Shown here in pieces: positions 20,209-23,409 of a stretch of DNA of 64,000 bases. The number at the start of each line of letters is the position of its first letter. The first letter of the stretch is position 1. Position numbers and translations under genes: made by a program. The notes below the pieces were generated by a model. It did no database searches. It worked only from the letters and a program-made list of their open reading frames with translations, and was not told the DNA's origin. The DNA is from Candidatus Methanomethylicia archaeon (lineage in GTDB: Archaea > Thermoproteota > Methanomethylicia > Culexarchaeales > Culexarchaeaceae), in NCBI GenBank assembly GCA_038727515.1, contig JAVYVS010000001.1, positions 352,001-416,000 of the forward strand, written 5' to 3'.

Positions 20209-20985
20209 TTAATTAGATGCTGGAATTGTTGCTGGTTTCATAGCAGCCTTTTTCTTCTTATAATCAGTGTATATAATGTATAATAAGCCTAAGCAACATA
20301 TTGCAGTCATTATTGGAGCGTAAACACCAGATTCAGGGGTACCTATACCACTAGCCTTCCATGGGAAATATCTACTACCAAGCAATAATTGGAACCTTTG
20401 TATAAGTAGAGATTCTCTACCCATAACTGTATTAGCGAAGGACGCACCTAAAGCGGCTAAAATTACATATCTACCAGCTTTATTTAAATTCTTTAATGGA
20501 CCTTTAAGCTCAGTGGTAAATATGAAGAAGAATATTGCTAGTACAGCACCAAAGAATAATACAAATCTATTAAACGTGGTGAAAGGATCGGCAGCAAACA
20601 ATGATGTACCTATAGCAGCATTTATTTGACCAACGAAATCTGATCTAATAGTACCCCTTAAACCAGTTCCAAGACCATAACCAATACCAATAGCTATAGG
20701 TATCCTGTATAACCAGAAATACTTTCTTGAGAAGAAGAAGTAATAGCATAATCCTATAAGAGCCCATGGAAATACGAAATCCCATCTACCACGATAAACA
20801 ACTGGGTTATATAGGTAATTCTGGAAGAACCATAAGTCGTATGAAACACCATAACCAACACTTATACCAACGTATAAGTGCTCTACAAATCTAAATAGTG
20901 GGTTTTCCCTATATAAGTATGATAGACAACCAAAGCTTACGAATACAGCAGTCCATACGAAAATTAGTTCTTGTAATGTCACCAT
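20209..20985 (-). CDS. Multi-pass membrane protein, subunit D of DUF6754-type operon
   Basis: About 7 TM; SYLYRENPLFRFVEHLYVG; GRYVIL.ALGASFANTVMGR. ATG 20985 follows GGAGGTGGGTGA. Confidence 0.85.
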   Translation of the reverse strand: MVTLQELIFVWTAVFVSFGCLSYLYRENPLFRFVEHLYVGISVGYGVSYDLWFFQNYLYNPVVYRGRWDFVFPWALIGLCYYFFFSRKYFWLYRIPIAIGIGYGLGTGLRGTIRSDFVGQINAAIGTSLFAADPFTTFNRFVLFFGAVLAIFFFIFTTELKGPLKNLNKAGRYVILAALGASFANTVMGRESLLIQRFQLLLGSRYFPWKASGIGTPESGVYAPIMTAICCLGLLYIIYTDYKKKKAAMKPATIPASN

Positions 20986-20989
20986 ACTT

Positions 20990-21877
20990 TCACCCACCTC
21001 CACGAGACTTTTTAGCAAAATAACTTAGATTGCCAAGTATAATACCTACAACAAGTAGATAATGTACTGCTGATTGAGCATTCATCGCTTGTGGTGCACC
21101 AGTTAACCCAAATTCACCAAGTAAAGTTTCATATTCAGCCGCACCCCTAAGACTATTAAGAATACCAATATAACCAATTTCACCCTTCTTACCAGCCTCA
21201 TAGTATGGTAAATACCCGGGAACTGAAACCCCAGGAAGACATGCGGCGAATACTAATGCAGGTGGAAGTTTCTTGGTAGCCCAATATTGTAGGTATGTTT
21301 CAGGTCCAGGGGAACCAGCAGCAAAAGATACAACTAGAGAAGCATACTTTATGCCATCAAACTTTTGTACTAGCTCCAAATTTTCTATGGGATTACCATA
21401 ATAATCCTTAGTCATAGCTTGGGTAATGGTGTCGAAAATTCTTATTATTAGAGCTGTAGTTGCTAGATAACCTAAGTTCACCCAATGCTTTCCATACTCT
21501 TTAGTAATAATGCGAGTTGGATTTTCAGGATCTAAACCAGTATGATCAATACTCTTCCATATTTCATCAGCCATTATCGGACCATCACTCCACATACCCA
21601 AAACAATAATATACAAGGGTCTCTTAACCACATGTCTAAATACAGCAATAGCTTGTGGATGTATCTCTGCGTGAGCACCACCATAATCAAATGATAAAAC
21701 AACTAACGATCCTGCTGGAAGCTTTTCAATATAATTATATAGGCCAAGGGTGTATTCAGTTATACTTAATGGTGATGGAGCAACAATAGCCACGGGTATT
21801 GCTATGCATATCGCGGTTAATAGGTATAGCCATCTAGGATCTAAAGCTTCAAGAAATTCATACCAAGGTCTACTCAA
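20990..21877 (-). CDS. Membrane-anchored alpha/beta protein, subunit C of DUF6754-type operon
   Basis: TTG 21877 after GGAGGTGAG (the longer ORF overlaps subunit B). N-terminal TM, SFDYG..AE.HP, WVNLGY, PYY..G, LRGAAEYE, AQSAVH, C-terminal TM. Confidence 0.85.
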   Translation of the reverse strand: MSRPWYEFLEALDPRWLYLLTAICIAIPVAIVAPSPLSITEYTLGLYNYIEKLPAGSLVVLSFDYGGAHAEIHPQAIAVFRHVVKRPLYIIVLGMWSDGPIMADEIWKSIDHTGLDPENPTRIITKEYGKHWVNLGYLATTALIIRIFDTITQAMTKDYYGNPIENLELVQKFDGIKYASLVVSFAAGSPGPETYLQYWATKKLPPALVFAACLPGVSVPGYLPYYEAGKKGEIGYIGILNSLRGAAEYETLLGEFGLTGAPQAMNAQSAVHYLLVVGIILGNLSYFAKKSRGGG

Positions 21878-21878
21878 T

Positions 21879-22595
21879 CTACTCACCTCCAGCAAGTGTT
21901 GGTCTACGCTCATAAGCAAATATGACTCTAACACCATAAGCAATACTGCCAATAGCCGTACATAAAACAACGCCACGCATAGCAGAAGTATTTATGTAAT
22001 CCATTATCCAAGCTCTAATAGGTTCAAAGAATGGGAATAATGCTGAATTTATTGGTGCATTACCCATTAAGACTAAAAATCCAGTTATTAATAATATTGC
22101 TGCATCAATATTCCTAGCTCTAAAAGCTCTATAACCAGCTGAAATTATGAAAAATCCAAGTAATGCAAACATCATACTACTAGCAACACTACTCACACAC
22201 CAATATAGATAGTTCCAGACGACTGCCGTAGAATCATAAATCCATTTAGGTACCACAGCACCCTTTGGATCTAATGCATATCTACCACCAAGAGTGCTTA
22301 TAATTGCCATGAATGGTATCATAATTAAGACTATAAGGCTAAATTGCCATGGACCACGTCTACGAGAAACATTCCTATAATGAATCCTAAATACATTTAT
22401 TGCACCAATACCAATAGCCATCGCACCCATAGCATTAAAGTAATCTAACATTGTAGTTTCAAGATAGCTGGATGTACTGAAAGTTCCAACTCTAATATCA
22501 ATGTACCACTCAAATACGTAAATTATCCCAAATACAAATGCTAATATTATTGGTATAGACCTTTTATAATCAAGTAATAGTGATTTAAATCCCAT
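21879..22595 (-). CDS. Multi-pass membrane protein, subunit B of DUF6754-type operon
   Basis: About 6 TM; FALLGFFIISAGYRAFRARN, GNAP, AMRG; GAGGTGAG RBS. Confidence 0.87.
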   Translation of the reverse strand: MGFKSLLLDYKRSIPIILAFVFGIIYVFEWYIDIRVGTFSTSSYLETTMLDYFNAMGAMAIGIGAINVFRIHYRNVSRRRGPWQFSLIVLIMIPFMAIISTLGGRYALDPKGAVVPKWIYDSTAVVWNYLYWCVSSVASSMMFALLGFFIISAGYRAFRARNIDAAILLITGFLVLMGNAPINSALFPFFEPIRAWIMDYINTSAMRGVVLCTAIGSIAYGVRVIFAYERRPTLAGGE

Positions 22596-22605
22596 CTAGC
22601 TCACC

Positions 22606-23409
22606 TCACTTAGCCAATAAATCTAATATAAACCTACTTCCACTACATATAGCGATAATACCTATCAACAACATAACCAATGCTATATACCTCCCAATAT
22701 CATGAGCAAATAATACACCAATTATTTTTGGATCTCTAGTTATATATGCTGCAGCTGCATAAAGCTCTTCACCGATTAAAGCATAATCACATGCAGCAAC
22801 GAAGAATGGCATTTGAACAGTGGCTGTGGTTCCAGCAATCTGTATTGCACCAATATTATAGCCAGCTTCAGCAAGCTCTAAAGATTCAGCATAGAAATAG
22901 CCTAAGAAGAAGTTTGCTGCAGGCCTCTCCCTCTGGAATATTCCAAGAACACCTGAAGCAAATGCAAATTGCTCACTGGCAATAAACCTAACCATTTCAG
23001 GTTGATACATATCTGCTTTACCTTCAGCTGCATAAGCTTGTTTTACAATACCTTCAGCAGCCATATAAACAGTGTAATACCTATTGGCTACAATTATGGG
23101 GATACCATATCTAGCAGTCTTTCTGGCAACATCTCCAAGTATTGATAGAGCAGCTAAAGTGTTTAAATCACCTATACCATGCATACCTGGAGTAAAGAAT
23201 ACTGGTCTACCCATCTCTGTAGCTCTACCAATAGCTTCATCCACAGCTTCAACAGCAGGAATCTTTCTAACCCTAACTTTTTCCGGTCTACGTTTAGAAA
23301 ATTCTAGTGCAAAAATCGTTAAAGCCCCAAGAATCATCAACATTACGCCTTGTGCCATACGCCCAGATATAACCCTAAACTCTATTTGGGCTAAATCCAG
23401 CAGTATCAT
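22606..23409 (-). CDS. DUF6754-like membrane-anchored protein (subunit A, copy 2)
   Basis: VRKIPAVEAVDEAIGRATEMGRP, PAANFFLG..YAESL.LAEAG, GAIQIAGT, PFF...CDY.LIGEELYAAAAY. Confidence 0.82.
   Translation of the reverse strand: MILLDLAQIEFRVISGRMAQGVMLMILGALTIFALEFSKRRPEKVRVRKIPAVEAVDEAIGRATEMGRPVFFTPGMHGIGDLNTLAALSILGDVARKTARYGIPIIVANRYYTVYMAAEGIVKQAYAAEGKADMYQPEMVRFIASEQFAFASGVLGIFQRERPAANFFLGYFYAESLELAEAGYNIGAIQIAGTTATVQMPFFVAACDYALIGEELYAAAAYITRDPKIIGVLFAHDIGRYIALVMLLIGIIAICSGSRFILDLLAK

Follow-up and report, generated by a model that had tools for sequence, protein, structure and literature searches.

A four-gene membrane-protein operon

In a 64,000-nucleotide stretch of contig JAVYVS010000001.1 (positions 352,001 to 416,000; hereafter the window) from a Candidatus Methanomethylicia archaeon, four co-oriented genes on the minus strand encode membrane proteins, which we call subunits A to D. 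Subunit A (22606-23409; 267 aa, ATG start) is followed by B (21879-22595; 238 aa, about six transmembrane (TM) helices), C (20990-21877; 295 aa, TTG start, with a soluble domain between two TM segments) and D (20209-20985; 258 aa, three long helical hairpins and, in the window copy, an extra C-terminal TM helix), with intergenic gaps of 10, 1 and 4 nt. These lengths and gaps agree with those given in an earlier note made from the sequence of this DNA. Shine-Dalgarno-like sites on the same strand precede A (GAGAGGAG, 23414-23421), B (22601-22607, overlapping the stop codon of A), C (21883-21890, within the final codons of B) and D (20995-21001, within the final codons of C). The earlier note had described a GAGGTG-type ribosome-binding site at each junction, and GAGGTG is indeed present at all three, where it overlaps the stop or final codons of the preceding gene; both strands of the window (128 kb) contain 16 copies of the hexamer, three of them at the three junctions.

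A metatranscriptome contig spans positions 20232-23412 and bridges all three junctions, evidence that establishes neither the strand nor a single transcript for A-B-C-D. In the same RNA run the flanks are partly covered and contig depths are unequal, observations that we did not use because the run was found with the window sequence and contigs cannot rank genes. Fourteen runs held at least half of the sampled words: 13 hot-spring metagenomes and one sediment RNA run, the source of the contig. A promoter scan with bacterial-type models, applied to this archaeal window, returned fewer sites than shuffled sequence. A gene for a 154-aa orphan protein (23534-23998, minus strand; no Pfam match over cut-off) lies 124 nt upstream of A and is missing at the corresponding site in a genome of the sister genus; it is outside the A-B-C-D unit. 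This orphan and a radical SAM gene are the neighbours of the window copy, which adjoins no hydrolase gene.

Subunit A belongs to DUF6754 (PF20539), which it matches with 306 bits against a gathering cut-off of 27, bearing out the resemblance that the earlier note had reported; B, C and D match no Pfam family at E<=1 and no NCBIfam family at E<=0.1. The literature, searched outside subscription papers and supplementary tables, yielded nothing on DUF6754, PF20539, the partner family PF13941 described below or this system; the earlier note likewise knew of no function assigned to DUF6754. No Walker A motif is visible in A-D, and the four subunits have no ABC_tran match (the nucleotide-binding protein linked to them belongs to PF13941), no match to TRAP, TTT, MFS or APC carrier families, and no match to subunits of Mrp, Eha, Ehb, Mtr, Rnf or Nqr. 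Among 88 B, 90 C and 88 D members, no family match recurs in more than four of each and no ABC or ECF permease, T-component or S-component family recurs; the strays were BPD_transp_1 in one of the 90 C members (E 0.006) and ABC TMD0 in four of the 88 B members (E>=3e-4). Profile searches with each subunit thus matched no characterised complex, ECF and Mrp/Eha/Mtr included, as the earlier note had anticipated in proposing a candidate new class.

The predicted structure of A (predicted local distance difference test (pLDDT) 93.4; predicted template modelling score (pTM) 0.87) has a six-stranded alpha/beta domain (residues 51-224) between TM helices 18-40 and 227-255, and in this model the soluble domain is of the Rossmann-like fold class. 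Its best Foldseek match was phosphopantothenate synthetase (3wdk; E 2.4e-4, TM-score 0.30), and VIA-align paired it with Sir2 (Z 10.2, root-mean-square deviation (rmsd) 3.8, 144 residues aligned), the RCK/KTN protein KtrC (Z 10.1, rmsd 2.6, 115 aligned) and transhydrogenase domain III (Z 9.3, rmsd 3.4, 136 aligned). Because Z scores of about 9-10 were tied across many families, at identities below 14%, the domain was assigned to no family. It shares its alpha/beta fold class with the DHS-like NAD/FAD-binding Rossmann domains (3wdk, Sir2, transhydrogenase domain III) and with RCK domains and, unlike them, is anchored by two TM helices.

Lys and Arg residues number on average 4.8 (A) and 1.2 (C) after the first TM helix and 0.7 (A) and 3.5 (C) after the second. 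By the positive-inside rule, the soluble domain of A is predicted to be cytoplasmic and that of C to lie outside. This topology agrees with the N-terminal extensions found on 82 of 98 bacterial A open reading frames (ORFs), which in some examples match FN3 or beta-propeller domains, and with large insertions in the loop after TM3 of B homologues. The N-terminus of B, which has a conserved AAYRAFRAR inner loop, is probably inside; none of 46 long B homologues proved to be a subunit fusion, and insertions were present instead. Subunit C may be the substrate-capture subunit.

The model of D (pLDDT 82.3; pTM 0.58) consists of three long hairpins and a C-terminal helix, with E35, G102, Q120, F154, F156 and G180 invariant; at the sequence level there is weak support for the three-hairpin repeat (E 0.0009-0.024). 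Foldseek gave no match at E<=0.001, and the best Z among 48,161 chains was 5.5, on single helices, a result that demonstrates neither a new fold nor the absence of a known one. Compared with 4rfs_T, which bears on the question of an EcfT-type fold, this pTM 0.58 model gave E 3.1 and a TM-score of 0.13. Homology between B and D was considered and is not supported by sequence comparison.

No Cys or His is invariant in A-D, and hence there are no invariant metal or heme ligands. The earlier note's statement that redox Cys and His are lacking holds in this respect; it passes over columns that are well conserved (C H271 in 85/90 and H81 in 76/90; A C207 in 82/88; B H72 in 64/88; D H36 in 65/88). 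Unlike RnfA/E and NqrD/E, B and D have no invariant Cys. Conserved polar residues in or near TM helices are E35 and Q120 in D, N282 and H271 in C, D237 in A, and R207 and E229 in B.

Paralogous operons, distribution and partner genes

The source genome (G000; 1.59 Mb, 93.6% complete) contains eight A-B-C-D operons of identical gene order, and the sister-genus genome (G080) contains seven. The second copy that the earlier note had seen at the edge of the window is one of the eight: A' (340-1098, minus strand) matches DUF6754 with 209 bits (cut-off 27) and is divergent from an amidohydrolase gene at 1233-2915, the start of B' (3-326, minus strand) is cut by the window edge, and B', C' and D' extend beyond it (G000 C1:350230-352326). 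In a quick tree that excluded one stop-containing copy, the A proteins mostly pair one-to-one between the two genera, the exception being one recent duplication. Orthologues in G000 and G080 are 82-86% identical, and median identity between paralogues is 41% for A and 30-32% for B, C and D, making A the most conserved subunit. The eight paralogues are old, and old paralogues that pair one-to-one across genera are what would be expected of substrate-specific modules. In the stop-containing A (L004:10964-11779; G000 C1:633963-634778), codon 150 is an in-frame TAA and the G080 orthologue has Gln there; either a nonsense mutation of recent date or an error in the assembly would account for the difference. 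In one G080 operon (L029:7430-7813), B stops at 127 aa; its G000 orthologue has 218 aa.

In a scan of GTDB species, at least 547 of 600 candidate stretches were confirmed. The best 80 loci were examined; their sources are WOR-3, Fermentibacteria, Cloacimonadota, Zixibacteria, Bacillota, Planctomycetota and others. All four genes stand in the order A-B-C-D in 72 of the 80; a contig end truncates the set in five, and A is alone in three, so the conserved gene order that the earlier note had looked for is present. The subunit C family alone comprises 5,648 clusters at 50% identity. Carriers of the system belong to many bacterial phyla, most of them uncultured, and to a few archaea, and its sequences form thousands of clusters; a homologue from the system is on record from the cultured planctomycete Caulifigura coniformis. 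DUF6754 was found in 4 of 151 genomes of the archaeon's own phylum, 26 of 301 Bacillota, 65 of 251 Planctomycetota and none of 14 well-known control genomes. Tandem arrays of at least three A-B-C-D operons within 12-17 kb occur at five loci (L077, L079, L081, L088 and L090).

The commonest neighbours of DUF6754 loci are three unrelated families, which we designate c0, c1 and c2, each at 16-17 of the best 80 loci; a fourth, c4, a small membrane protein of some bacteria, is present at nine. The c0 protein (~610 aa) belongs to PF13941 (MutL; 404 bits in G000, above cut-off) and shows DxGSTT and GGATT motifs. Its partner c1 (~375 aa) appears to contain a barrel-sandwich hybrid, with weak RnfC_N, biotin-lipoyl and KOW matches; it resembles the N-terminal domain of RnfC/NqrA (PF13375, PF05896) below cut-off (E 8e-5 in G000) and, unlike RnfC and NqrA, has no flavin or Fe-S motifs. 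The c2 protein is small and helical and belongs to no family. Sequence searches against solved structures returned nothing significant for c0, c1, A or C, and the ESM Atlas gave only unnamed clusters for B and no usable named match for a bacterial C, neither with a model.

In G000, c0 (C1:553923-555782), c1 (C1:552755-553909, beside c0) and c2 (C2:97994-98389) are single-copy, and c4 was not found. The c0-c1 pair lies 180 kb from the window copy and is followed by a gene for an M55 D-aminopeptidase. Elsewhere the same genes stand in cis. Among 20 planctomycete loci, selected mostly for closeness of the c1 and A matches, seven have the contiguous order c4-c2-c0-c1-A-B-C-D and four more have c2-c0-c1-A-B-C-D; two Bacillota (G467 and G341) have c2-A-B-C-D-c0-c1. 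Natural c0-c1 fusions of 1023 and 964 aa were found (L149:2692-5763 and L150:2800-5694), several genomes have similarly long frames besides a split pair, and several Bacillota have multiple c0-c1 pairs per genome.

Across 703 sampled genomes, DUF6754 and c1 were both present in 88, DUF6754 alone in 7, c1 alone in 4 and neither in 604. Relatedness among the genomes inflates these counts, which take in three positive centre genomes and come from incomplete assemblies. In the same order, the counts were 3, 1, 0 and 147 in the archaeon's own phylum, 24, 2, 1 and 274 in Bacillota (the phylum of G180), and 61, 4, 3 and 183 in Planctomycetota (the phylum of G154). In Bacillota, c0 (E<=1e-60) and c1 occur in the same 25 of 301 genomes. 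One of c0 and c1, or both, lie within 18 of the 80 loci, and all 50 genomes whose fetched locus lacks them have a c1 match elsewhere, near full length in 47 (E<1e-140), cut by a contig end in one and weak only in two. DUF6754 is therefore almost never found without c0-c1, in cis or in trans. The four genes themselves carry no ATPase, as the earlier note had said; for the system as a whole the description 'ATPase-free' fails, since it is almost always accompanied by c1 and by c0, an ATPase-like protein of the MutL/GlmL family.

These counts bear on a view in line with the 'ATPase-free' complex of the earlier note, that A-B-C-D is an ion-gradient-driven transporter or channel working alone, to which c0-c1 would be only a regulator or assembly factor. 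The conserved polar residues in and near the TM helices and the likeness of the A domain to RCK/KTN gating domains such as KtrC are compatible with this view, as are the altered phosphate motif of archaeal c0 described below and Bacillota genome G301, in which A-B-C-D occupies the chromosomal site that it has in G467 and G341 and both c0 and c1 are missing. However, c1 is present in 88 of the 95 DUF6754-positive genomes, a tighter association than expected for an optional regulator, and the proteins of G301 are the most diverged seen: its A scores 108 bits, compared with 324-382 in three Bacillota comparators, and in this single case has lost profile positions 1-65, including the conserved EAxGRATEMG helix. 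We consider transport by A-B-C-D alone very unlikely. The reverse case is seen in G208 (L153:7822-10388), which has c0-c1 with no DUF6754 in the genome and a c0 without profile positions 99-227.

A putative ATP-driven importer and its alternatives

Taking together the computed gene set, gene order, co-occurrence, paralogy and fold class of A, we propose that A-B-C-D and c0-c1 form a primary-active importer, built of parts unrelated to those of ECF transporters, whose single ATPase module in the cytoplasm powers several membrane modules, each with its own substrate. We give this reading a probability of about 55%. From these data we infer the topology, assembly, docking on A, ATP hydrolysis, transport, its direction and its substrate. 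A-B-C-D would be the membrane module of a larger system whose other parts are c0, c1, c2 and, in some bacteria, c4. The outside domain of C would capture a small organic solute, for which amino acids, amides and short peptides are the likeliest candidates, and B and D would form the membrane path. The c0-c1 module would dock on the cytoplasmic domain of A, and ATP-driven closure of the c0 cleft, relayed through A, would switch the path from outward to inward; in G000, a single c0-c1 motor would serve eight interchangeable membrane modules.

Three observations suggest A as the docking subunit for c0-c1: among paralogues its sequence is the best conserved of the four; c1 stays with A where the operon is split (in 4 of the 20 planctomycete loci c1 adjoins A, and C is elsewhere); and A of G301, where c0-c1 is missing, has lost a conserved helix. 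A complex prediction with trimmed B, C, D and A gave 0.60 with A as partner, 0.00 and 0.00 in partner-replaced controls and 0.59 when C was replaced, and is evidence neither way.

The proposed arrangement bears similarity to group II ECF transporters, in which the EcfAA'T module is common to several S components: one cytoplasmic ATPase module acts in trans on several paralogous membrane modules and is encoded in cis elsewhere. Unlike in those transporters, there is no ABC ATPase here and no CbiQ/EcfT or S-component match in B, C or D, and the four membrane subunits are duplicated as a block. As judged from sequence comparisons, the A-B-C-D membrane module is of no described family. Known ATP-driven solute pumps have ABC/ECF, P-type, rotary or ArsA motors. 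If the proposal is true, these would be joined by a further motor type, an actin-fold ATPase linked to a membrane module of four subunits, and we put at even odds that the system represents a class of primary-active transporter not described before, with an actin/Hsp70-fold ATPase in place of an ABC, P-type or rotary motor. Sparsely annotated groups (Planctomycetota, Bacillota and many candidate phyla) often carry the system, and under the proposal a large MutL/GlmL subfamily, whose name alludes to glutamate mutase, would gain a role open to testing. Direct tests are possible because there is a homologue in Caulifigura coniformis and because seven-gene operons are compact.

Several findings weigh against an ATP-driven importer. 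Besides the inflation of the co-occurrence counts, there are discordant genomes, seven with DUF6754 only and four with c1 only. The motif of c0 that we take to be phosphate-1 is intact; the second phosphate motif is D..D in all 37 bacterial c0 proteins and G..N (GVGLGGATTN) in all three archaeal ones (L114:9924-11783, L158:7321-9180 and L032:1471-3315; ~50-67% identical to other c0), so that nucleotide handling may differ in the source organism. The described relatives of c0 are, by their family names, accessory proteins of B12 mutases and not transport motors. The similarity between A and C, considered as a sign that they are paralogues of inverted topology, is colinear but weak (E 0.01-0.025), and other runs, including a deep comparison, aligned only one TM helix. 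With regard to the substrate, Pfam tallies of near and far ORFs show no clear enrichment of peptidases, which in Bacillota are present in both sets, and replacement of Opp-type transporters was rejected, as SBP_bac_5 is present in 24/24 positive and 25/28 negative Bacillota. Because of the G..N motif of archaeal c0 and its mutase-accessory relatives, we keep open four alternatives: the gradient-driven carrier discussed above, a membrane-bound enzyme, group translocation and an exporter.

The relatives of c0 bear on the second of these, in which A-B-C-D would be a membrane-bound enzyme, possibly ion-pumping, with A binding a nucleotide-like cofactor and c0-c1 acting as an ATP-dependent reactivase or cofactor loader. 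GlmL-like proteins probably act as reactivases for B12 mutases, and c0 has, besides its PF13941 membership, sub-cut-off matches to the accessory proteins GlmL and Or-4. The fold of A resembles phosphopantothenate synthetase, Sir2 and transhydrogenase domain III, c1 has a weak RraA-like match (E 0.054), and one copy of the operon follows a carboxylase subunit (PYC_OADA) and a biotin-carrier-like gene. One bacterial c0 scores below the cut-offs of all three NCBIfam models (224/475 for GlmL, NF040745; 205/600 for Or-4, NF040744; 171/204 for TIGR01319), the first two being equivalog cut-offs. The c0 protein is ~150 aa longer than those proteins, comes with c1 as a pair or a fusion, and has links to membrane-protein genes rather than to mutase genes. 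Against the enzyme, the fold matches of A are tied and generic, A-D have no invariant Cys or His, and substrate-specific modules are the better fit to eight paralogues that have diverged and whose neighbours are unrelated. A single 237-aa protein provides the only B12-binding domain of G000. The B12 enzyme families PF06368, PF09043 and PF02286 were not found in any of five carrier genomes, nor were the last two found in control genomes. On balance we regard the enzyme as unlikely.

Kinases share the c0-type fold, and a bacterial c0 also matches Hydantoinase_A (E 6e-6, 26 bits, cut-off 22.9). Both observations would suit group translocation, in which import is coupled to modification and c0 is a kinase or ATP-dependent amidohydrolase acting on the solute, and amidohydrolases are the commonest neighbours of the operons (5 of 132 near ORFs). 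Such a mechanism is hard to reconcile with a single c0, which would need to modify the substrates of eight diverged modules, or with c1, which has no invariant His for phosphoryl transfer, and we think it highly improbable.

Finally, actin-like scaffolds are present in pilus and secretion systems, and the large extracytoplasmic additions to the subunits (FN3 and beta-propellers on A, PF01839/PF13517 in B and CARDB in C) could be those of an ATP-driven exporter or surface-assembly machine for protein, lipid or polymer. No cargo, pilin or glycosyltransferase genes recur as neighbours. Moreover, at seven loci (L050, L057, L062, L063, L071, L085 and L093) the operon is followed by a 917-971-aa protein that we read as a TonB-dependent, apparently outer-membrane, receptor, accompanied at four of them by ExbBD/TonB-like genes and at most by upstream glycine-cleavage genes (labels that are likewise our reading). 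A receptor with ExbBD/TonB-like genes after the operon points to import, and an exporter seems to us scarcely probable.

Substrate candidates and other genes in the window

An importer of peptides or acyl-amino acids had been proposed in the earlier note, from a hydrolase-rich genome and the context of the second copy. Import remains our best guess, and individual neighbours are plausible, in that some copies directly adjoin genes for M20, M24 or M32 peptidases, DUF885 proteins or amidohydrolases; the peptidase enrichment that was expected is not demonstrated. Neighbour tallies compared 132 near ORFs with 137 of 205 far ORFs (59 and 60, respectively, in Bacillota), using heuristic ORF calls and the top 25 families per set. 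Amidohydrolases are not among the top 25 families of the far set, M20 accounts for three of its 137 ORFs, and GcvP2_C, a glycine-cleavage family, accounts for 5 of the 132 near ORFs. Since there is no clear enrichment and Opp-type binding proteins coexist with the system, amino acids, amides or short peptides are a lead to the substrate rather than a result. SBP_bac_5 has no match in G000 and one in G080; G000 has Peripla_BP_6 and APC matches.

Elsewhere in the window, a gene at 24851-25909 (plus strand), whose product we take from its motifs to be an FtsZ/CetZ-like GTPase, faces two small genes of no named family. At 15026-19098, a presumed acylphosphatase-like gene separates two genes of opposite strand, whose products are presumably a HerA-like ATPase and a NurA-like nuclease. 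Two segments (32859-44882 and 50101-52728) hold genes that we read as subunits and maturation factors of xanthine-dehydrogenase-family molybdoenzymes, together with, on the same reading, an M20-like hydrolase, an aminotransferase and a dihydroorotase/allantoinase-like gene. This cluster suggests purine or amide catabolism.

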